Virus record (IMG/VR): IMGVR_UViG_3300021431_000075 | Span: 512,001 to 576,000 of that record | DNA length: 64,000 bases | Strand: one strand, 5' to 3' | Origin: a virus | Taxonomy: Duplodnaviria; Caudoviricetes | Part shown: positions 46,338-56,983 of the stretch, piece by piece | How positions within the stretch are numbered: the stretch's first letter is position 1 | How the letters are laid out: every line of letters begins with the position of its first letter | Made by a program: the position numbers and the translations under genes | The notes under the pieces: model-generated | What the model was told of the DNA's origin: nothing | The model's database searches: none | What the model saw: the letters and a program-made list of their open reading frames with translations, nothing else

Positions 46338-49148
46338 TTATCTTCCTGTCGGATAATGCATCGGCTGCCTTAGTGGACTCGCAGTCGGATAGCCTCCGCC
46401 GTAACCGGGCATCTGCGGACTTCTCGGTGCTGATGGAACGCTTGACGGATATGACGGCATCGGTGCCGACGGATAACGTCCGGTTTGCGGATATGCAGGT
46501 GGCATTTGATGCATGCTTCCTGTCGATGAAGCTGTTGTTATCTTTCCGAAACCGCTTGCCGCGTTTCCGTACAGATGGGCGATGTCTGATTCCGAATATT
46601 CGTCGTCAAGTGTCTGGACTGCATATTTCTCTATGAACATGTTAACCTGCGAAAGCGTCTCTGTCATTTCATAGCTCACAAGTTCGGAAGAGCATAGCAT
46701 CATGAACCAGTCATCCAGCCAGTACTGGAATTCTTCTTCCTCGAAAGCGACAGAGACGAACAAGACTGTTGTCGCAAGGTCGTCGTGCATGACTCCGCCT
46801 GAATATGTTCCTGTCTTCGATTTCGCGAATGCCTCAAGCTGCTGAATGGTTGAGTTTGACGACACTTCATGGTCGTGTGTTATGATGATTTGTCTTCTTG
46901 AAATCATCTTCGCGCCGAGTTCGCAGAAGTATCCCTTTCCCTTGCTGCCGGAGACTGTCTTGAATCCCATCTCCTTCTTTGTCGCTTTGCTGGAATGGAA
47001 AGTCTTGATGACAAGAGACGGATAGAACATGTCATGCTTCTTGAATATCTTCAGCCAGTTGTGTCCATTGAAATTAATTTCTATATTGACACGGCAGTTG
47101 TCGAACTCTGTTCCGAGATATGTCATTTGTCCGTTCTTGAGCCATGTGAACACGATATGCTTTGCCGCTTCCGCGCATTCTTCCTCGTCGAACACCTGAT
47201 CCATATAGACTCCGACCTGTCTGAACGCGATGCAGTCTTTCAGTTTGACTTCCTTGTATCCGTCTCTGTTCGCTTCGATTATCTGCGGGTCCAAGAATTC
47301 GATTTTGTATATCGTTATGACGTTCCAGTCCGAATCTTCCTGTCCCTTTTCTCCGATTTGCTTTCCCTCTGCCGTGTCTATCTGCAGAAAGAACCTGCTT
47401 GTCATCAGGTCTTGTTCTGTCAACTGGTCCGGATGGAAGTCGGGATGCCAGAACAGTTTGGAAGAGACGTTTCTCGGAATGCCGTATATGTCAACAGAAC
47501 GGAAGAAGCAAGCATGGTCGTTCATCCACTTCAAATCAACAGGAGAAACAAGCTTTGATGCATCAGAGTCGAAAGAGAGACCGAATTCCTGATTGAAGTT
47601 CGCTTCGCCGAATGCCGCTATCTGCTTCTGCTTCCATTCTTCCGTATCGTGTCCCGGAACCTGCCAGTAGTCAACCCTCTTGTATCTGAATCCGTTCCAC
47701 TTCGGATTGTCGTGCGAATAGACCATGTCGCTGGAGAACAGCAGGTCTGCATAAAGGTTATGACGTCCGCGTGGCGTTGAAAGAACGATGATTTGCGATA
47801 TTTCCGATGATGAAAGAGTCGGCCAGACAGACTGCCAGAACGGAACAATTTTGTTTGCCGGAATAAGAGCGCACTCGTCAACCATGAGAAGATGAATGGT
47901 AGAACCTGTCGCCGGCGTCTCTGATGTTGCGGAACACTTGAGCGTGCATCCGTTCTCGAACTTGATTGTCGTCTTTGATACAGAGCGGACTCCGGGCTTG
48001 AGCCAGAACGGAAGTCCCTTTAGGATGTCTGTGACCTTGTCAAGAATCTCTTCTGCAGTATCTCCCTTGTTTGCTACGATTCTTGCATTCTTGTCCTTGT
48101 TGAATATCATATAATAGACCATGAATGCGGCAGTCGTTGTCGTGTTGTGCGAAAGTATTCCGTTCGTGAAGTAAGAATGACAATAGTCGTTTATTGAAAC
48201 ATCGCACATGAACTCTTTCCGGTCTGTCTTTGTGACAGAGATGACGCGAGAGAAACCTGTCGTGACTTGTAGCAGGTCAGATGTTGTCAAGTCCTTTGCA
48301 TATTTCCAGACATTTGTCGATGTCTTGACAAGATGCGTGTCCGCGCATTCGAGAGAGAAACCGTTCTCCAACTTGATTATATAGACAATGAACGGCTTCG
48401 TGATATGAAAGTGAGTAGCCGGCTTGTAGTCGTTGTTTTCAGAAAGAACAAGCGTGTCTATGTTCGTTGTCTGTATTATCTTCTTGTTAAAATGCTGAAA
48501 GTCTTTGATTTTGAACTTTCTGCACATGCACTTGTATATGAAACCGGACATGATGTTGTTCTTGTTGAACTTGTGCGCTGTGTATATCAAGAAGTCAAGA
48601 ATCGTCGGTTTCTTGATTGAACGGTAGTATATTTCATAGAGTGGAACTTGCTTGTTGTTGATTGTGACGTTTGTGTTCAGGGAAACGCATTTTCCGGTCT
48701 GTCTTGACTGAAGCAGGATGTTGAGTCTTGACTTCGGAAGGAACATCTCGTACTCTTCATTGTAGTACGAATCAGTGTACATTTCGATGACATCTTTCTG
48801 GTAGTCCCTGAGCTTGACAGTCATCCTGCCGCGGTCCGTCAAGAACTTGCAGTATGTCTCGATGAAGTAAAACGGATCGTCTTGGCATTTCTGCATCTCG
48901 TCCCACTCTTCTTTTGTGTACTCGAAGGCGAGGTCCGCGTTACGCCACTCTATCTTTCCATGAAAGAACGGAATCATGTCCGGAGCAGTTCCGTTCTCTA
49001 TGTCTTTCAGTATCTGGTTTATCTTCTCTGTCGAGTATATCTCCGCTCGTTTCTCCTTCTCAAGTTCCTTGTCGAGATAGTTTGACTTGTCATCACGAAG
49101 TTCAATCTGCTCCCGGCGTGGAATAGACATCCTGCGCTTTGTTGGCAT
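46338..49148 (-). CDS. 17: Terminase large subunit (T4 gp17-like), intein-containing
   Basis: LRDYQ, SRQTGK|intein|TTT, VDECA, STPRG, FNQEF, DTAEG, MHDDL. Confidence 0.95.
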   Translation of the reverse strand: MPTKRRMSIPRREQIELRDDKSNYLDKELEKEKRAEIYSTEKINQILKDIENGTAPDMIPFFHGKIEWRNADLAFEYTKEEWDEMQKCQDDPFYFIETYCKFLTDRGRMTVKLRDYQKDVIEMYTDSYYNEEYEMFLPKSRLNILLQSRQTGKCVSLNTNVTINNKQVPLYEIYYRSIKKPTILDFLIYTAHKFNKNNIMSGFIYKCMCRKFKIKDFQHFNKKIIQTTNIDTLVLSENNDYKPATHFHITKPFIVYIIKLENGFSLECADTHLVKTSTNVWKYAKDLTTSDLLQVTTGFSRVISVTKTDRKEFMCDVSINDYCHSYFTNGILSHNTTTTAAFMVYYMIFNKDKNARIVANKGDTAEEILDKVTDILKGLPFWLKPGVRSVSKTTIKFENGCTLKCSATSETPATGSTIHLLMVDECALIPANKIVPFWQSVWPTLSSSEISQIIVLSTPRGRHNLYADLLFSSDMVYSHDNPKWNGFRYKRVDYWQVPGHDTEEWKQKQIAAFGEANFNQEFGLSFDSDASKLVSPVDLKWMNDHACFFRSVDIYGIPRNVSSKLFWHPDFHPDQLTEQDLMTSRFFLQIDTAEGKQIGEKGQEDSDWNVITIYKIEFLDPQIIEANRDGYKEVKLKDCIAFRQVGVYMDQVFDEEECAEAAKHIVFTWLKNGQMTYLGTEFDNCRVNIEINFNGHNWLKIFKKHDMFYPSLVIKTFHSSKATKKEMGFKTVSGSKGKGYFCELGAKMISRRQIIITHDHEVSSNSTIQQLEAFAKSKTGTYSGGVMHDDLATTVLFVSVAFEEEEFQYWLDDWFMMLCSSELVSYEMTETLSQVNMFIEKYAVQTLDDEYSESDIAHLYGNAASGFGKITTASSTGSMHQMPPAYPQTGRYPSAPMPSYPSSVPSAPRSPQMPGYGGGYPTASPLRQPMHYPTGR
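48144..48689 (-). mobile_element. Cis mini-intein (182 aa) in the terminase Walker A motif
   Basis: Starts CVSLNTNV, block B CADTH, ends NGILSHN|T; no endonuclease motifs. Confidence 0.9.
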
Positions 49149-49284: not shown

Positions 49285-49959
49285 ATGAGAATACAAAGCA
49301 AGAAGGCTCTTTATGAGAGCATCATGAGAGATGTTGCCAAAGTAGTTAAGAGAAGATTGAATGAGTCTGATGGAGAAATTAACAGTTCGCGTTCTTATTC
49401 ATTGAGCGAGATTCCGTTTGAATGGCTTCTTAAACCCGATCTCAATAAAAAATTCAATAAATTAAACCCAGAACTATTCAAGCTTGACAATAAAGGAAGA
49501 ATTGGCATCAATTTATATTCTCTTGGCATTAATGATGATGATTATGATGATGCACCACCAACAAACCTAAAACCGATGATGACTATTTATGCAGAAAATA
49601 TAGCACAACTCTGTTGCAAAGTTTATTATTTGTATAATGTAACACAAAATAAAATTAATCCATGTAATAAATACTTTTTTAAAGTATTTAAAACATTTGA
49701 ACGAAATTCAATTAAATTTAATCATCTTCTTGGAAATTTCAGTGATTTGATCGATGAACTCAAAAAAGTAGATCCTTGGTTTATCAATCATCCAAAAAGA
49801 TACGCCGGTGGCTTTTTGAAGTTATTTGGTTCTAATGAAGAAAAAGCAAAATTGATTCTTGATGTATTCAATCATGTCGAAAAAGTTTATCCATTTTCAA
49901 GATTAATAAATGCAACATATGGTGAGATTGAAAAAGAACTTCATGACATGTTTTCTTAA
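49285..49959 (+). CDS. Putative internal head protein, paralog A
   Basis: Leader LYESIMRDVAKVVKRRLNE; FKLD..GRIG and DPWFINH shared with paralog B. Confidence 0.7.
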   Translation: MRIQSKKALYESIMRDVAKVVKRRLNESDGEINSSRSYSLSEIPFEWLLKPDLNKKFNKLNPELFKLDNKGRIGINLYSLGINDDDYDDAPPTNLKPMMTIYAENIAQLCCKVYYLYNVTQNKINPCNKYFFKVFKTFERNSIKFNHLLGNFSDLIDELKKVDPWFINHPKRYAGGFLKLFGSNEEKAKLILDVFNHVEKVYPFSRLINATYGEIEKELHDMFS

Positions 49960-50150: not shown

Positions 50151-50849
50151 TCAGAGATATTTTCTAACAAACTTATCCAGTGGACAAACATGGTCAAGAT
50201 GCGTAAAAACATCTTCAATTACATTCAGACTTAGTGAACCGTCTTCTCCTGTTTTAATATATATTTTTTCATCACCTTCTTTGCCATAAACTCTTCTTGA
50301 ATGATTGATAAACCAAGGATCATTTTGTTTGATTTCATCTATTCTATCCAAGTAACCATGAATAAAATCTGCAAACCCTGGAATGTTACGCATAAAAAAA
50401 TAATACAAACGTTCAATTTTTGGATTGCATTTTCCAAATGTTCTTCTATGATCGAAAATTAAATAACTTAATTTAGCAATAGCAAATGCAATATTGTCTT
50501 CATACAATACAAATGATGGCTTTTGAACATTTGGAATATAATCACGATTTGCATCTCTAATATTTTTATAAGCATAAACATCAAAACCGATTCTTCCATC
50601 ATGGTCGAGTTTAAATATATCTGGACTGTCATTATGAAGAACTCTGTTGAATATAGGATTCAAAATATCTCTAAATGTATACTCTGAAAGTTTTTTCTTA
50701 CTTGCAATATTCATATCTATGTCATCAACATCATTAAAAGAATTTGTTGATTCAAAGTCATACAGACCTTCGTTGAGTCTTCTTTTGACAACTTTTGCAA
50801 CATCTCTCATGATGCTCTCATAGAGAGATCTTTTGTTTTGTCTTCTCAT
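50151..50849 (-). CDS. Putative internal head protein, paralog B
   Basis: Same leader and motifs as paralog A; convergent, with terminator hairpins at 50017-50050 and 50093-50126. Confidence 0.7.
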   Translation of the reverse strand: MRRQNKRSLYESIMRDVAKVVKRRLNEGLYDFESTNSFNDVDDIDMNIASKKKLSEYTFRDILNPIFNRVLHNDSPDIFKLDHDGRIGFDVYAYKNIRDANRDYIPNVQKPSFVLYEDNIAFAIAKLSYLIFDHRRTFGKCNPKIERLYYFFMRNIPGFADFIHGYLDRIDEIKQNDPWFINHSRRVYGKEGDEKIYIKTGEDGSLSLNVIEDVFTHLDHVCPLDKFVRKYL

Positions 50850-51077: not shown

Positions 51078-53981
51078 TTATTCATTTATTGTTATTTCTG
51101 GACAATCCGCAAGCACTCTTGAGTATAACACTTTTGCTCCTGTTTGTGTCGGATGCACCATATCTGAAGAAATATGCCCTATTATATCACTCGAACTTAA
51201 TGCACTGAACACATAAGATGAATTGTTATATGAAACGGTGATTTCATTGTTTGTTTCATCTTTCGATTCTATTGTGTAATTGTCATTGACACTACCGTTT
51301 GAATTATATATATGATTTGCTGTGTTTGTGTCAAGAACCTTGTCTATACTTTTGCTTGTGTATATAGTGGCAGCAAGCGTTTCGTTTCTCCAAGCAAATA
51401 ATGTCGGCGAATTATGCCATATGCCATCTTCATCTGTACCAACAGCATCTGCAAAATCTATTATTCTACATCCAAGAGTTTTTATATAATTGTTATATCC
51501 AGTTCTCTGGACTCTCGGAGTTGTAGGAATAGTAGATATTACAACATCAAAACCATATTCATGAGACAAACTGATTAAAGTATCTATATAAGTCTTTTGA
51601 TAAGAATTGATTGTATAAGCATCATTTACCTTTTCTTCGGTTCCGCCACCATTCATACCATGACACCAAACAACTATAGATGGAACATATCCCATTCCAA
51701 GTAATGTAGTTAAATCTGAAATTCCCTCATCTGGTTTTTCTCCTGCCTTGTTATCATAAAGTGTTCCGAAATATAAATCTCTAAAATAATAATAAGGCCA
51801 TCTGTTTGCGTCATTATATGAAAAATATGAGTCGCCAAACATCCATATGCTTTTGGTTAAATCCTTTGGAAAGAATTTCACTTCAGCATCAATAATAGTT
51901 TGCGTACCATTATTTTCGATAAAAGGTCGTCCGACACCCCATTTGTTTTTAGTAGTATACTCAAAGATGTCACCTTTGCTATTAAAAATTTGTATTTTTG
52001 AAACACATTGAACATATGTAGAATTAGAAGTACTATCAATAGTTGTAGACACTACAACAGTCGTGTCATTATCTATAAATTCACTTGGCAATGTTTGAGT
52101 ATCTTCAGTGGTAGTTGATGTGTAATACCTATGAAGAATCGCTTGTGTTTGAGTTAATTCAAGCCAAGAAGCCGCATATAATCTTTTATTATTGCCATTA
52201 GTATAACCAACACCGAAACACACATTCTCTATTGTTCCCTTAACTCTTCCAACATAGGTACAGTTCTTTGAAATATTAATAGATGATGTATATATAACTC
52301 CGGAAGCATCAATAATTCCCTTTGCCGTTAAACAGTTAAATTTTTTTGGCGGAACATATGAACTAATATCAATATCTGGTATATATTCTGGCTTGATTTT
52401 TCTATCTGCTGAATACGGAACATAATTTGTTATTACAGAACCTTCTTCAACCTGTATAGAATCTTTATAATCATAATCAAATGTAAACCTTATATAAGCA
52501 TCACCCGCACATTCTACATATGTATAAATATTGGTTCTGTCACCTCTAATGTACTTTTTATCAGAGTCATAGACAGCCATGCCTGATGTATTACCAAGCG
52601 AACCATAATGATTAAGTATCAATCCATTCTCTGAAATCGGAATATAACCAGTACAACCAACTCTACCTTCATGTTCAGTACCTGCCCAAGAATATTCATT
52701 ACCTGAAGTAGAAGTGATTTGCACATTTAATTTAAAGTCAGGATCATTTGGATTACATAAATTCTTGCTATATATAATTTCAAAGAAATTTGCTTTATCT
52801 GGTGTAACTGCACTATCAACTAATTTTGTTGTTGATACTGAATTATCAGCAATTCGACCATCTTTCATTATCCAGTAAGGTTCAGCATAAGGAATGAATT
52901 CGCTTGGTAATGTACTTCCTTTGTATATTGCGTACTGGTTATTTTCGTTTGGATATAAGTTAAAACGAACATAAGCATATGAAGGGTTATCCGTTTTGGA
53001 TACTGCTATAGCACTACCGGGATTTGTAGTCTTATCAAGGAAAGTTATGTAGTCTCCATTCTCATCATATGCAACATAAGCTGCTACTCCTTGACCGCTT
53101 TTGTTCATACAACTAATGCAGATAATATCTTCTGTAAGCGGTATAAGTGGAGTACAACCGTATGTAGCATTATATGTGGGATTGGAGATATCTCCGACCA
53201 CTCCGGTATTTCTATTTACATATCTTCCTACTTCTATTGTGTCCGGATTAAGCAAATTCGTTCCGATAACCAAATCCATCGTAGCATCTGCAATTACCTT
53301 TCCTTGTGCAGCACTCAATGGTCTAACAGAATCATTAGTTGTTAAATTATTAACACTAATGTCATCTTTTAATTTCGATGCGGATATACTATTGTCTTTA
53401 AGTTGTTCTTCACCGATAATATTTGTTTTAAACTCACTTTCTAAATAATTATATGGGATATATTCATTTGGATAGTTAGAAGAAGTTCCTCTAATTACCA
53501 TAAATTCATCAAGTTGTGCGATTGCACCAGAATATCTTACATAAGCGTCTCCTTCTTGATATGTTGCTTGTTCATTGCTATAACCATGAGTAAATACTTT
53601 TTCGCTATTATAACAAGCATATCCTAAATAAGTACCACCCTTTTTTGCCAATGCAGCATAGCAACCGGCTTCATCAATAGGTATGTAATCTGTAGTAAAA
53701 GAAGCACCGACTGTTGAACTCGGTTTGAGTTCACCATCTAATCTACTGACTAAATAATCATCAACCTTTTTTCTTTTATCAAAAAGATTTATACGAGTAC
53801 TATCAATAAATTTATTAGCAATGTTTGTTAGCGGTTCAACTTTATCATTTATTTCTTCAGTAGCATCTTGCACATTTGTAGAAACTAAATCACTATTGGT
53901 ATTGTTGAACGTAATTATAGAAGCGTCTGAACCAATAAAGTAATCAAATTCTTCTACATTTATTTTCGTTACCTTAGCCAT
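51078..53981 (-). CDS. Tail spike/receptor-binding-like protein with repeated beta modules and a C-terminal SGNH esterase (967 aa)
   Basis: NL(F/L)..., T.YIP, DAY(V/I)R and YIPY modules; FGDSY, GMN, DMVHP. Confidence 0.7.
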   Translation of the reverse strand: MAKVTKINVEEFDYFIGSDASIITFNNTNSDLVSTNVQDATEEINDKVEPLTNIANKFIDSTRINLFDKRKKVDDYLVSRLDGELKPSSTVGASFTTDYIPIDEAGCYAALAKKGGTYLGYACYNSEKVFTHGYSNEQATYQEGDAYVRYSGAIAQLDEFMVIRGTSSNYPNEYIPYNYLESEFKTNIIGEEQLKDNSISASKLKDDISVNNLTTNDSVRPLSAAQGKVIADATMDLVIGTNLLNPDTIEVGRYVNRNTGVVGDISNPTYNATYGCTPLIPLTEDIICISCMNKSGQGVAAYVAYDENGDYITFLDKTTNPGSAIAVSKTDNPSYAYVRFNLYPNENNQYAIYKGSTLPSEFIPYAEPYWIMKDGRIADNSVSTTKLVDSAVTPDKANFFEIIYSKNLCNPNDPDFKLNVQITSTSGNEYSWAGTEHEGRVGCTGYIPISENGLILNHYGSLGNTSGMAVYDSDKKYIRGDRTNIYTYVECAGDAYIRFTFDYDYKDSIQVEEGSVITNYVPYSADRKIKPEYIPDIDISSYVPPKKFNCLTAKGIIDASGVIYTSSINISKNCTYVGRVKGTIENVCFGVGYTNGNNKRLYAASWLELTQTQAILHRYYTSTTTEDTQTLPSEFIDNDTTVVVSTTIDSTSNSTYVQCVSKIQIFNSKGDIFEYTTKNKWGVGRPFIENNGTQTIIDAEVKFFPKDLTKSIWMFGDSYFSYNDANRWPYYYFRDLYFGTLYDNKAGEKPDEGISDLTTLLGMGYVPSIVVWCHGMNGGGTEEKVNDAYTINSYQKTYIDTLISLSHEYGFDVVISTIPTTPRVQRTGYNNYIKTLGCRIIDFADAVGTDEDGIWHNSPTLFAWRNETLAATIYTSKSIDKVLDTNTANHIYNSNGSVNDNYTIESKDETNNEITVSYNNSSYVFSALSSSDIIGHISSDMVHPTQTGAKVLYSRVLADCPEITINE

Positions 53982-54003
53982 TTCTTATTAGTTAGAAGCA
54001 TTT

Positions 54004-54078
54004 TTATTGATTAACCGGTGTCATTTCGATTGAATTGTCTTCAAAATCTGCATCCTTTATGATTACAATCTTTCCCAT
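54004..54078 (-). CDS. 24-aa peptide MGKIVIIKDADFEDNSIEMTPVNQ (not in the ORF track)
   Basis: 18/24 identical to 54278..54352, with 8 synonymous codon differences. Confidence 0.75.
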   Translation of the reverse strand: MGKIVIIKDADFEDNSIEMTPVNQ

Positions 54079-54141
54079 GAAAACTTTGCTACATATGTTA
54101 TTTTAAAATGATTAAAACAAGAGTGTTAGTATTTTTAACGA

Positions 54142-54252
54142 TTGTTTCTAAACAGGTAAGTTTCAGTTAGTTACAACTTCATATAATGCTATTGTGAACA
54201 AATTGAAGTCTTTGAAACCCAGCAAGATGCAAACTTACCTGTTTAGAAACAA
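54142..54252. repeat. Perfect 22-bp inverted repeat with a 67-bp spacer; candidate inverton
   Basis: TTGTTTCTAAACAGGTAAGTTT (54142-54163) / AAACTTACCTGTTTAGAAACAA (54231-54252). Confidence 0.9.
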
Positions 54253-54277
54253 ACTTCTAAAAATAAGAGTGCAATCG

Positions 54278-54352
54278 ATGGGAAAACTTTTGATTATCAA
54301 AGATGCAGACTTTGAAGAAAATTCTATTGAAAGAACACAGGTAGAACAATAA
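54278..54352 (+). CDS. 24-aa peptide MGKLLIIKDADFEENSIERTQVEQ (not in the ORF track)
   Basis: Paralog of 54004..54078; ends 20 bp before the next gene. Confidence 0.75.
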   Translation: MGKLLIIKDADFEENSIERTQVEQ

Positions 54353-54372
54353 AATAACTTCCGTATCAAGAC

Positions 54373-56442
54373 ATGGGTAATCCAATCATAACGACAATAA
54401 ATGTTGAAGATGTTCCATATAAGATTAAGGGTTCATTGTATGATGGACTTGGCAACAATACAGATGGTGGTATCACGCAGGCTGCAATAACTTCTGAGTT
54501 GAATAGCATCAATGAAACCATAGACAACATCGAGCACAACAATACATTGGAATATGAAGAAAGCATCGTCATTTTAGACAATCTGGATGCATCTGTTGTT
54601 GAGATTACGTCAAGTTATGTTAATGCAAAGAATCTGAAGTCTAACGGTATTGATGTTGCCACGCTTGAAGATATCAGCACATTTGCATCAATAGATGACA
54701 TTAACGATAAACAAGACAAGATAGACAATATCGGTTATGAAGAACTTAACTTCCAAACACCGACAATAGAATTCAGGGATGATAATGATAATTATGTCGG
54801 GGAAGTTTCTCCAGAGGCAATCGCAGCAAAGAAGTTCTTAATCAAGACAAGTCCGGAAGATATTGGGGTGGACATAAGCGGTATTGTTGGCGGCACCACA
54901 GTTGCAAAGACGCTCGGGTTCAGTGACATTGTCCATGTCATCGGTTACGGTCAGTCTCATATGTCCGGCACAAACAGCGGACTCCCGGTATCGACAACAC
55001 AAAACAGGGCAAATCTTAAAAGATTTGCAGGTGGAGTCAGACCGTATGATACATTTGACCTTGATTCAAGCCGTAGAGTCATTATCGAACGTCAATCTGG
55101 TGTCGAACCTACATATCTTGAAATGTCTGACAATAAAAGCGCATGCTTGACGCAAAAGTCCATCAACTATATTGCTGCATCTGTTGATAGTCTTGTTCCA
55201 TTGACAGAGCAGAGAGTAAAATATGAAAAGAACCAAAATAACACATACAGTCCGAATCCTTCTGTAATAAATGCATCTACATCTGGACATGCGGACGGAG
55301 AGACTCCATTGACCGGTTTCTGCGAAGGTTTCTTGAACGCGATTGAGAAATCATACGGAAACAATTTCGGATTTGAAATGCTTGCTACTTGCTGTGCTTA
55401 TGGTTCTGCTGATTTCCTGAGCCTTTGTCCGCTTGACAGAGATGGCATTATTCATAACGAAAAAGAAATAGACGGGACGAACTTCAACTACTTTGACGTT
55501 TTGATGATGACTGTCAAGGAAGCAAAAGAACTTGCAGATGCAGAGAATAAGTCATATTCTGTTGATGTGGTCATATATATGGAGTCGAATACGATAGCTG
55601 AAAACCGTAGTGGAACTTCTGTTAGTTTGACCGTTCAACAGAAAGCATACAGAATCGCGCAGCTTTTCACGCTCATTAACCAGAGAGTCAAAGAAATAAC
55701 AAAGCAAAGCAATGATATAATATTCTTATGTGACCAGAGCAAGACATATATGTCACAGAGAGAAGCCATACGCATTCTTTGTATCGACAAAGAATTTGCT
55801 TTGACGGAAGCTGAACAGAACGTACTGGAGACTTTGACGAACAATGATATTGAACCATACGACATGAACAAGATTTATCTTGTTATCGGTTCCAATAACT
55901 ATGAAATCGGCACTGACCACATTCATCATCCATCATATGCACAGAAACTTGAAGGAGCAACAATCGGAGAGATATATGCAAGGATTCTCTCAAGAAATAA
56001 TTTCGAGCCTTTGTATCCAATAAAGTTCAAGGTGATTGACAATGATATCTATGTCAAATATCATGTGCCTGTTTCTCCAATCGTAATAGACATGAATGCA
56101 GTGAACGGAGCGCATACTTGTCCGAACTGGTGTACAGAACGTGGTGAAATGTACGGTTTCTCAATCTTCAACAAGAATACATCTACTTATGAACCGAATT
56201 TCATCACTGCTGCGGAAGTGACAGAAGGAGATACTATTAAACTCACGTGTGAAAGTTCTCCTGTTGGTAAAGTTCTTGAATACTGTTATAAGCCTATTGA
56301 CAATAGTGGTAGTGGTTTGCCAACGAATTGCGAGTTCGGCAATGTCAGAGACTCGCAAGGAGATATTGCAAAAATCACAATCAACAACACAGAACATCCA
56401 TTGCATAACTGGTCAATCGGCTTCTCAAAAGATATAATGTAA
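54373..56442 (+). CDS. Tail spike/receptor-binding-like protein with a sialate O-acetylesterase (SASA/SGNH) domain (689 aa)
   Basis: GNNTDGGITQAAIT fibre motif; GYGQSHM, MESN, DHIHH. Confidence 0.7.
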   Translation: MGNPIITTINVEDVPYKIKGSLYDGLGNNTDGGITQAAITSELNSINETIDNIEHNNTLEYEESIVILDNLDASVVEITSSYVNAKNLKSNGIDVATLEDISTFASIDDINDKQDKIDNIGYEELNFQTPTIEFRDDNDNYVGEVSPEAIAAKKFLIKTSPEDIGVDISGIVGGTTVAKTLGFSDIVHVIGYGQSHMSGTNSGLPVSTTQNRANLKRFAGGVRPYDTFDLDSSRRVIIERQSGVEPTYLEMSDNKSACLTQKSINYIAASVDSLVPLTEQRVKYEKNQNNTYSPNPSVINASTSGHADGETPLTGFCEGFLNAIEKSYGNNFGFEMLATCCAYGSADFLSLCPLDRDGIIHNEKEIDGTNFNYFDVLMMTVKEAKELADAENKSYSVDVVIYMESNTIAENRSGTSVSLTVQQKAYRIAQLFTLINQRVKEITKQSNDIIFLCDQSKTYMSQREAIRILCIDKEFALTEAEQNVLETLTNNDIEPYDMNKIYLVIGSNNYEIGTDHIHHPSYAQKLEGATIGEIYARILSRNNFEPLYPIKFKVIDNDIYVKYHVPVSPIVIDMNAVNGAHTCPNWCTERGEMYGFSIFNKNTSTYEPNFITAAEVTEGDTIKLTCESSPVGKVLEYCYKPIDNSGSGLPTNCEFGNVRDSQGDIAKITINNTEHPLHNWSIGFSKDIM

Positions 56443-56452
56443 AAATTAAGAT

Positions 56453-56983
56453 ATGAAACTTATATTAAAAAATAGCAATCTTGTATTTGCGCAAGGAATT
56501 CAGGATCTAACGATTCCAATACAACAAACAACCGGCGAAATGTATTATGTTGCAAATGCCCGTTCGACAATCGCTTGGGATAATTCGGATCCTTCTAATA
56601 AAGCAATCACAGCCGGTAGCAAATATCAACGTTCACAAGTAATAAATGTAGAAAGAACAAAATACAATGCTTTCAAGATTGTCACGTCGAATCCTAATGA
56701 CGTTACGACATATGCATGGATAACATTCGCTGGTTCTCAAAAAGGACAAAGAACTTATCAATCTTCTCCATTGACAGTCAACACAAAGCATGACTTTCGA
56801 GATTCTACGAAGTTCGTTATAGATTCTAAAAGACAATCATTAGACAGTGCTATTAGTAGCATAGATGGTTGTGCAGGAGAAATAGTGCATCAATTCGCAA
56901 TCAGTCTCAAAAACGACGGAACTGCGCCGTCGATGACTGCTGAAGAATTTAAAGCAATAACTATTGTTTTGATGGCTGAATAG
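56453..56983 (+). CDS. Hypothetical spike-associated protein (176 aa)
   Basis: Directly follows the spike gene; terminator at 57004-57037. Confidence 0.6.
   Translation: MKLILKNSNLVFAQGIQDLTIPIQQTTGEMYYVANARSTIAWDNSDPSNKAITAGSKYQRSQVINVERTKYNAFKIVTSNPNDVTTYAWITFAGSQKGQRTYQSSPLTVNTKHDFRDSTKFVIDSKRQSLDSAISSIDGCAGEIVHQFAISLKNDGTAPSMTAEEFKAITIVLMAE

Follow-up and report, generated by a model that had tools for sequence, protein, structure and literature searches.

Two divergent fibre genes lie in the window, by which we mean the whole 64,000-nucleotide stretch analysed here (positions 512,001 to 576,000 of IMG/VR record IMGVR_UViG_3300021431_000075), and they are separated by a 67-bp spacer with a perfect 22-bp inverted repeat on either side. 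We consider it likely that this cassette belongs to a shufflon-like system of dispersed loci in which a promoter is brought to one fibre gene or another, the short cassettes being silent parking sites. The proposal builds on the sites themselves, on a phage recombinase whose catalytic residues are intact, on alternative junctions that fall at the sites, and on a layout that is conserved in relatives.

The inverted-repeat cassette of the window

On the left of the cassette lies fibre/spike unit A1 (51078..53981, minus strand; 967 aa), which carries an N-terminal fibre module common to its paralogues and matched Phage_fiber_rpt and nothing else in Pfam. Its C-terminal ~260 aa probably form an SGNH-type esterase, as suggested by a GDS motif at residue 716, a DxxH motif at residue 940, and structural matches of the C-terminus to SGNH/GDSL models in the Atlas (TM 0.54–0.66), which are leads only. 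On the right, fibre/spike unit B1 (54373..56442, plus strand; 689 aa) matches the tail fibre family phrog_4201 (2.7e-39), gave no match in the Pfam search, and is probably a SASA-like O-acetylesterase, judging from a GQSHMSG motif and from an Atlas feature comparison with SASA clusters (score 0.94, 27/30 matches) that likewise provides leads only. A phmmer search of PDB sequences returned nothing meaningful for either spike. The esterase labels that a sequence-only reading of this DNA had given to the two proteins are backed by the catalytic-type motifs and the Atlas leads, but not by an esterase match in Pfam or the PDB. B1 is followed in the same direction by a 176-aa gene (56453..56983, plus strand), which accompanies it in the alternative isomer described below.

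Each spike gene is preceded by a 24-aa leader ORF, the A type at 54004..54078 (minus strand) with a gap of 22 nt to the spike start and the B type at 54278..54352 (plus strand) with a gap of 20 nt. The two ORFs were said to have drifted at 8 synonymous sites; they indeed differ by exactly 8 nt in synonymous codons, and by a further 9 nt in non-synonymous codons. Such an ORF was found before every type-1 fibre gene. Among nine copies compared (six from the genome of this phage, G000, one from the related contig L007 and two from the related contig L008), the first 17 codons show many synonymous changes, and the amino-acid changes are conservative only. The leader peptide also resembles the N-termini of 183–326-aa proteins encoded beside other fibres.

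The repeat arms occupy 54142..54163 (plus strand) and 54231..54252 (minus strand), and no such inverted repeat appeared in 100 shuffles of the sequence, with up to 3 mismatches allowed. They are embedded in a drifted inverted duplication (53950-54410) whose 84-nt arms are 76% complementary, a level of identity that would yield an unbroken run of 22 matches with a probability of ~0.002. The suggestion that the inverted repeat is under selection is supported, and so is its role as a DNA recombination site. Between the left arm and its leader ORF lies a 63-bp A-type flank (54079..54141), which is 96–100% conserved across all A-type units, moves together with its fibre gene, and is still joined to A1 in the alternative isomer; the B-type flank on the other side measures 25 bp (54253..54277). 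The mirror symmetry described for the cassette therefore extends to the peptide-to-spike gaps, but not to the unequal distances between repeat and peptide. In other respects the sequence statements of that reading all hold, including the divergent spike units, the 24-aa ORFs, the perfect inverted repeat, the 67-bp spacer, and the lack of a recombinase gene in the window.

Three site pairs and one recombinase segment

The same reading had proposed a search of the full genome for further 22-mers and for invertases, and this search returned six exact copies and one tyrosine recombinase. The copies lie three per strand in the 673,114-bp genome of this rumen phage, which has terminal repeats, and they make up three identical inverted site pairs, with none elsewhere. 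The window cassette is one of these. Cassette 2, 15 kb away at 581.5 kb of the genome, is a 96% reverse-complement copy of the entire window cassette, and its spacer differs from that of the window by 1 base. The third pair, 47 kb away (genome 613,500-615,222), encloses 1.7 kb with the tyrosine recombinase gene. The recombinase that had been expected to act from outside the window is the phage's own enzyme, encoded 47 kb downstream between two copies of the 22-mer, and it would be the catalyst of the exchange. The three type-1 cassettes share one layout, in which divergent fibre units (site, flank, 24-aa leader ORF, and fibre gene) surround an interior segment; this interior is the 67-bp spacer in two cassettes and the 1.7-kb recombinase segment in the third.

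The 330-aa recombinase matches Phage_int_SAM_5 (PF13102; 3.5e-6, 27.7 bits versus a cut-off of 22.3) and, just below the curated cut-off of 27.1, Phage_integrase (PF00589; 2.4e-5, 24.6 bits); its profile gave no match to PDB sequences at E 0.01. The catalytic residues R175, K210, H290, R293, H316, and Y325 are invariant among 25 homologues. Its bacterial relatives are almost all Bacteroidota, the closest being Bacteroidales proteins of 39–42% identity; around the genes of these closest relatives we found no comparable inverted repeats, so they give no context. The host is probably a member of the Bacteroidota, as indicated by these relatives and by the TAnnTTTG host-type promoters of the phage. 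In the phage collection, blastn with the window region returned no match; among viral contigs, an exact scan for the 22-mer found no copy beyond the phage's own record, and a scan with the back-translated recombinase gave no confirmed relative.

Within the 1.7-kb segment, the recombinase gene lies behind a host-type (Bacteroidota) promoter, and a terminator is located at the end nearest its 3' end. This is the sole terminator, and none was found before the fibre gene. Two late-promoter motifs (RATAAATA), at genome positions 614769 and 615133, both point out through the end opposite the terminator. The layout of the segment, with both outward motifs, is retained in the related contigs L008 and L048 (recombinase 57% identical). 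A point against the proposed system is that the two arms in L008 have a single mismatch in their inner halves. A TnpB gene is also present in the L008 segment. The sole match of the recombinase segment in Rfam, to the L20 leader, fell below threshold and is attributed to chance.

Across the genome, the RATAAATA motif occurs 192 times, of which 161 fall between genes, and in 107 instances it lies 30–50 nt upstream of a gene, that of the terminase among them. The six type-1 fibre units lack a RATAAATA of their own, and the motifs of the recombinase segment may be the sole promoters for these fibres. The distance of ~170 nt from the late motif to the leader ORF, compared with the usual 30–50 nt, counts against promoter delivery. 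In the mechanism that we propose, the 22-bp repeats would be the target sites of the phage-encoded tyrosine recombinase, and recombination between inverted sites of different cassettes would exchange their interiors. A fibre unit at the promoter end would then be transcribed late, and units at spacers or at the terminator end would be silent. The window cassette would be a silent storage locus in the present isomer, because its units adjoin the spacer and not the promoter end; the silent cassettes may nevertheless not be silent, because the right junction of the spacer forms a perfect host-type −7 box (TAAGTTTGCA). A further point against the mechanism is that direct-repeat sites would permit deletions, and it leaves their avoidance unexplained.

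The sequence-only reading had instead cast the 67-bp spacer (54164..54230) as an invertible promoter. A motif scan confirmed its statement that RATAAATA is absent from the intergenic region, spacer included, and the TATAAT that it noted is present at 54182-54187. However, sigma-70-type matches are at chance level in both intergenic regions scanned (4 found versus 3.4 expected in that of the window cassette), and the TATAAT and −35-like matches are of the E. coli type, which is not the type used by this genome, whereas its host-type promoters are Bacteroidota-type TAnnTTTG (consensus TAnnTTTGCA, from 91 upstream instances). We regard it as unlikely that the spacer itself flips, carrying or completing a promoter for either spike, or, in a variant of this explanation, that the −7 box at its junction is what moves. 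A flip would find identical inverted sites on both sides of the spacer and a recombinase in the genome. The right end of the spacer, read leftwards, completes a match to the host-type −7 box, of uncertain significance: the junction at 54228-54237 (minus strand) fits TAnnTTTGCA, the other junction ends in C and not G, and a TTAG lies 19 nt upstream, at the expected place of the −33 TTTG. Yet chance alone would be expected to place about one G in four different inner ends, and the spacer is without a late-promoter motif, though fibres are late genes. Moreover, four assemblies yielded eight spacers that are all oriented alike with respect to the A and B flanks, an orientation that the two G000 copies share; none is flipped, in consensus sequences where a minority state may still occur. 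A length of 67 bp is also very short for intramolecular synapsis, being near or below the limit in Cre/FLP-type systems. The spacer is probably a promoter-less linker that fills the cassette while the recombinase segment sits elsewhere.

Alternative arrangements at the sites

Other assemblies of the same phage carry the recombinase segment exactly between the two spikes of the window, with the 67-bp spacer at the third locus. All isomers are consensus assemblies, and the same-phage comparisons rest on fibre genes that are 100% identical. In ERZ12302814, A1 is joined to the promoter end of the segment (contig L016), B1 to the terminator end (L020), and fibre B3 to the spacer (L033); in ERZ28612978, B1 is again joined to the terminator end (L019) and the spacer to fibre A3 (L037). 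The spacer accordingly lies between B3 and A3 in the assemblies that have the recombinase segment at the window locus (L033 and L037). In L019 and L020, B1 is immediately downstream of the recombinase, and 100% identity to the window begins exactly at base 54231, the edge of the right site, with the recombinase segment before it. The left site, of which there are exact copies in the genome, is likewise a breakpoint of rearranged assemblies. ERZ28612959 and JGI 3300002641 have the arrangement of G000. In the alternative isomer, the late promoters would face the SGNH spike, making the window cassette the locus of expression. The two spikes, proposed earlier as a switching pair, are supported as parts of a switching system; the change actually seen is the replacement of the spacer by the 1.7-kb segment and not a flip. 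Similarly, the comparison of related assemblies suggested in that reading revealed alternative arrangements at the repeat, but no flipped 67-bp spacer in the eight observations.

More distant relatives add the opposite polarity of the segment relative to the two flank types. The terminator end is joined to an A-type flank both in L007 (recombinase 98% identical) and in L008 (84% identical), and in L008 the promoter end leads to a B-type flank. Because the A and B flanks diverge from the first base beyond the repeat, the crossovers in L007 and L008 lie within the repeat. The promoter end, identified by motif, is next to an A-type flank in G000 and in L016 but next to one of the B type in L008, so that both orientations occur.

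A second, related family of sites (type 2) lies between the other fibre pairs, with five good sites. Eight more fibre genes are served by it, arranged around an interior of 375 bp whose two late-promoter motifs, both of them RATAAATA, point to a 1549-aa fibre. In contig L053 a short spacer has taken the place of this long interior, and the crossovers are narrowed down to 12 and 21 nt; this junction predicts that strands are exchanged within the outer 12 nt of the site. The breakpoints of the alternative arrangements fall at the sites in L016, L019, L020, L033, L037, L007, L008, and L053. Tentatively, and with the balance of our judgement slightly against it, one tyrosine recombinase may act on two orthogonal site families and two mobile late-promoter segments, serving ~14 complete receptor-binding or depolymerase genes, with the 24-aa leaders as the translated part of the cassette.

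That paralogous promoter-leader repeats underwent ordinary homologous recombination or gene conversion, with the 22-mer as a conserved operator or leader element and the recombinase as a passenger such as a decayed integrase, appears improbable. The flanks and leader ORFs are 87–97% identical over 130–200 bp, and the same-strain isomers differ by a double exchange that preserves A/B polarity, as double homologous crossovers would (crossover windows of 69 and 47 bp, repeat included). The two leaders of one L008 cassette also share an identical 3' part, which points to gene conversion there. By contrast, in L007 and L008 one end of the interior adjoins the opposite type of flank, where the homology is the 22-mer only, and the narrow type-2 crossovers of L053 occur between flanks that are otherwise different. 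Recombinant flanks are 100% parental up to the repeat, the sites precisely enclose the recombinase in each of three lineages, the most distant with 57% identity, and its catalytic residues are intact.

We give very little credence to the 22-mers being the terminal inverted repeats of mobile elements, with the 1.7-kb unit autonomous, the 111-bp units MITE-like, and a preferred target upstream of fibres. The inverted terminal repeats around a recombinase gene, the short non-coding derivatives with the same ends, and the TnpB gene of the L008 segment would all suit such elements; all copies, however, lie between an A-type and a B-type flank, with 0 copies elsewhere in 673 kb, the flank sequences show no target-site duplication beside the repeats, and the exchange is reciprocal, the spacer being found at the locus vacated by the long segment. 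That the alternative junctions are chimeric assemblies at a repeated sequence is scarcely credible: contigs L010, L012-L014, L016, L033, and L037 end at or near the repeat, which indicates that assemblers struggle there, but the junction of B1 to the terminator end occurs in two assemblies with different contig naming, the remaining junctions in both fit one coherent isomer, the mixed junctions of L007 and L008 share 22 bp only, and four contigs from several samples show the L008 arrangement.

Relation to known inversion systems

With at least three sites in both orientations, a recombinase at the locus, and breakpoints in the sites, the promoter-moving system proposed here would be a shufflon in the broad sense. 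It departs from the classical shufflon (R64 Rci, p15B Min, and bifidophage Rin) in that its sites are not inside coding sequence; they precede the complete fibre ORFs by 110–160 nt, and every one of these ORFs has a start and an N-terminus of its own. A close parallel in segment architecture is the H-segment of Salmonella Hin, in which the recombinase gene is also within the segment, inverted sites form its bounds, and a promoter leads out of one end. Hin is a serine recombinase with two sites, whereas the phage has a tyrosine recombinase with six; unlike the Hin segment, the one described here can trade places with short spacers of other loci as far as 47 kb away, and its targets are phage fibre genes.

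Receptor-binding fibres determine phage host range, and switching among them may change that of this phage. As in Min of p15B, which has six crossover sites, Gin of Mu, and Cin of P1, a phage-encoded invertase would vary a receptor-binding fibre. According to the summary in PMC6109161, Min, Gin, and Cin are serine invertases with sites within the fibre gene at one compact locus, and with the sites so placed, a constant N-terminus receives one alternative C-terminus or another. In contrast, the sites described here are upstream of complete genes with their own N-termini, and the cassettes extend over 50 kb. The Rin shufflon of Bifidobacterium prophages, which diversifies a phage receptor-binding protein (PMC6109161), and R64 Rci are alike in using a tyrosine recombinase without an arm-binding domain and short asymmetric sites at several positions. 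Rin and Rci, however, swap C-terminal coding segments beside the recombinase gene, whereas here a promoter and recombinase segment swaps among whole-gene cassettes; unlike the Rin prophages, this phage has a genome of 673 kb with terminal repeats, in which no integrase other than this enzyme was detected. Bacteroidota have invertible promoters flipped by tyrosine invertases such as Tsr15 (cited in PMC6109161). These switches likewise have short inverted repeats upstream of surface or receptor genes, but they flip one promoter fragment in place, on or off, whereas the fragment of the phage changes partners among gene pairs.

Our literature searches turned up no inversion system in megaphages or in Lak/Jug phages. 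Perhaps, though we would not put it at even odds, this is expression-site switching for virion fibres of a kind undescribed in phages, with a logic comparable to antigenic variation. To our knowledge, programmed fibre variation is otherwise achieved by C-terminus swaps of serine invertases (Mu, P1, and p15B), by the Rin shufflon, and by diversity-generating retroelements. Keeping many complete fibre and esterase genes silent and moving a promoter among them would, if confirmed, be a further strategy, and it would help to account for the persistence of very large phages in gut and rumen, whose hosts, probably Bacteroidota, phase-vary their own capsules. Assemblies of such phages break or differ at the sites, and gene content alone cannot tell which fibre is expressed. 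The module may be widespread, since the recombinase family is common in metagenomes, where one search gave 160 relatives.

Type-1 sites and the recombinase segment

Two divergent spike units around a perfect inverted repeat had been described in the window by the sequence-only reading, which proposed that flipping of the spacer between the repeats chooses the esterase spike expressed. On re-examination all of its sequence statements were borne out: perfect 22-bp arms (54142–54163 and 54231–54252) enclose a 67-bp spacer; the 24-aa leader ORFs, 54004–54078 (−) and 54278–54352 (+), show eight synonymous differences and lie 22 and 20 nt from their spikes; and TATAAT is present at 54182–54187, where RATAAATA is absent. 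The mirror symmetry is imperfect, with repeat-side flanks of 63 bp (A side) and 25 bp (B side), and the esterase labels of both spikes are plausible leads that draw on motifs and Atlas matches and find no support in Pfam or PDB sequence searches. The arms sit within a bigger, drifted inverted duplication (84-nt arms, 76% complementary), in which a perfect 22-mer is unlikely to reflect drift alone (p ~0.002).

The 22-mer has six copies in the genome and none elsewhere in it. The second pair (genome 581,506/581,595) has the 67-bp spacing of the window and belongs to a reverse-complemented copy of the whole window cassette, 96% identical, whose spacer is oriented to the A and B flanks as it is in the window. 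The third pair (genome 613,478/615,223) has a 1,723-bp interior, bordered by A and B flanks and by leader ORFs as in the other cassettes. Inside it is the gene (genome 613,595–614,587, −) for a 330-aa protein, the sole tyrosine recombinase in the genome, whose catalytic set is complete and invariant among 25 homologues. A host-type promoter motif lies 48 nt 5' of this gene, a terminator hairpin of 14 pairs directly 3' of it, and two GATAAATA motifs (genome 614,769 and 615,133, +) point outward through the right site. No terminator was found between these motifs and the next fibre gene, and all six type-1 fibre units lack a late-promoter motif of their own. Just past the first late-promoter motif, a non-coding block (614,766–615,006; ~8766–9006 of contig L031) has 71–73% similarity with stretches at 442.7 kb and 74.8 kb of the genome; it had no match in Rfam and may be a small RNA or a mobile-element end. 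Six small serine-recombinase/resolvase genes (~200–215 aa; genome 76.6, 86.0, 119.4, 198.8, 308.1, and 655.5 kb) may be IS607-like elements.

Promoter roles were inferred from motifs. The genome (673,114 bp, 40.6% GC), of which the window covers bases 512,001–576,000, has direct terminal repeats and is rated complete, and two motifs are strongly enriched upstream of its genes. The first is the phage-type RATAAATA, frequently in the longer form RATAAATATCTTATAATA, of which 107 instances, including that of the terminase, lie 30–50 nt 5' of start codons; across the genome, 161 of 192 RATAAATA motifs are intergenic. The second is a Bacteroidota-type promoter, TTTG ~20 nt 5' of TAnnTTTGCA. Since nearly all bacterial relatives of the recombinase are from Bacteroidota, a rumen or gut bacterium of that phylum is the probable host; the record names suggest that the samples are sheep-rumen metagenomes.

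The leader ORF precedes every type-1 fibre and is probably translated, because its first 17 codons carry many synonymous changes and only conservative amino-acid changes. The first ~15 residues of the leader peptides are common to the N-termini of 183–326-aa proteins encoded just 3' of other fibres (window 54004–54078 and 54278–54352; genome 584,797, 591,545, 603,791, and 617,391), and the leaders may represent either functional short forms or relics of this family.

Alternative junctions in other assemblies

Exact copies of the fibre proteins were sought in other assemblies, and the sequence on both sides of every 22-mer was classified; the isomers are thus those of consensus assemblies from one study plus relatives. 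ERZ28612959 (673,736-bp scaffold) is arranged as the reference genome, as are the type-1 cassettes of JGI 3300002641. In ERZ12302814, the site connects the 967-aa spike with the promoter end of the recombinase segment (L016), the 689-aa spike with the terminator end (L020), and the 441-aa fibre of the third locus, B3, with a 67-bp spacer (L033). In ERZ28612978, whose record name carries the same BioSample number as that of ERZ28612959, the 689-aa spike is likewise joined to the terminator end (L019), and the spacer lies between A3, the other third-locus fibre, and a 33-nt stub matching the B3 flank (L037). In both assemblies the recombinase segment is exactly between the window's two spikes, and the spacer is now at the third locus. 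Fibre-gene identity among these assemblies is 100%, and the match to the parental sequence continues right to the repeat. Metagenome contigs of the phage and its relatives (L010, L012–L014, L016, L033, and L037) often stop at the recombination sites or a few bases from them, so that the sites systematically break assemblies.

The alternative isomer amounts to two inversions, left site by right site across cassettes, with crossover windows of 69 and 47 bp. Because A/B polarity is kept, this isomer taken alone could also result from a homologous double crossover in the flanks. Mixed junctions in two relatives remove that ambiguity. In L007 (98% identical recombinase), the terminator end joins an A-type flank that leads into the cassette-2 fibre, as a 32-kb inversion by way of sites 581,595 and 613,478 would produce; in L008 (84% identical recombinase), a B-type flank adjoins the promoter end and an A-type flank the terminator end. 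Since the two flank types already diverge at the first base outside the repeat, these exchanges must, to judge from the junctions, have taken place within the 22-mer.

L008 and also L048, which comes from unrelated samples and has a 57% identical recombinase, conserve the module: a related site, in inverted copies, bounds the recombinase on either side, and the outer 16 nt of the site are the part common to all three lineages. Both relatives keep the host-type promoter for the recombinase and the hairpin 3' of the gene, and at the opposite end, beside fibre genes, two or three RATAAATA motifs point outward. A TnpB (OrfB_IS605) gene is inserted within the segment of L008.

A second, 20-nt site (type 2) is found in four other divergent fibre pairs (genome 586,700–611,000; L029–L031), three of them with ~70-bp spacers, and has an outer hexamer and an inner decamer in common with type 1. 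The long interior (375 bp, 601,794–602,168; sites 601,774/602,169) carries two RATAAATA motifs facing a 1549-aa fibre. In L053 (JGI 3300002641), this interior is swapped for the short spacer of the 588.5-kb cassette, with crossovers narrowed to 12 nt and 21 nt, outside which the flanks differ; as read from these junctions, strands are exchanged in the site's outer half, and the inner half would thus move with the interior.

Proposed switch and known systems

We propose that host polymerase would transcribe the recombinase early in infection, that inverted sites of different cassettes would then recombine and re-partner interiors with fibre units, and that late transcription would be confined to the unit linked with the promoter end. 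This unit would be the 652-aa fibre A3 in the reference genome and the window's 967-aa SGNH-like spike in the alternative isomer; for the 689-aa SASA-like spike to take this place, an exchange of mixed polarity such as that in L008 would be required. In this arrangement the 67-bp spacers resemble placeholders. Their proposed flipping in place was not seen in the consensus assemblies (0 of 8 spacers inverted), and inversion of so short a segment is sterically unfavourable. Together, the inner end of the repeat and the right end of the spacer match the host-type −7 box perfectly in the direction of the A side; this may be a weak promoter or may be chance, because the required G is present in only one of four interior ends.

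The closest layout is that of Salmonella Hin, with a recombinase and an outward promoter inside the invertible segment, and the closest biology is that of the fibre-switching invertases Gin, Cin, and Min and of Rin, a tyrosine-recombinase shufflon (PMC6109161). Unlike in these systems, the sites here are upstream of complete genes, so that a promoter moves instead of a C-terminal exon; the cassettes, moreover, are scattered across 50 kb, and two site families appear to be served by one enzyme. Literature searches found no report of a megaphage system of this kind.

Elsewhere in the window, the large terminase (46338–49148, −, 936 aa) has a weak intein-splicing match just before its Terminase_6N domain (Pfam E 0.0024, below the cut-off) and may be an intein-containing TerL. 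Two paralogous genes, 49285–49959 (+, 224 aa) and 50151–50849 (−, 232 aa), encode near-identical N-termini and have near-identical upstream regions with AATAAATA; similar upstream blocks are also present at genome 301.8, 303.0, 323.0, and 660.0 kb.
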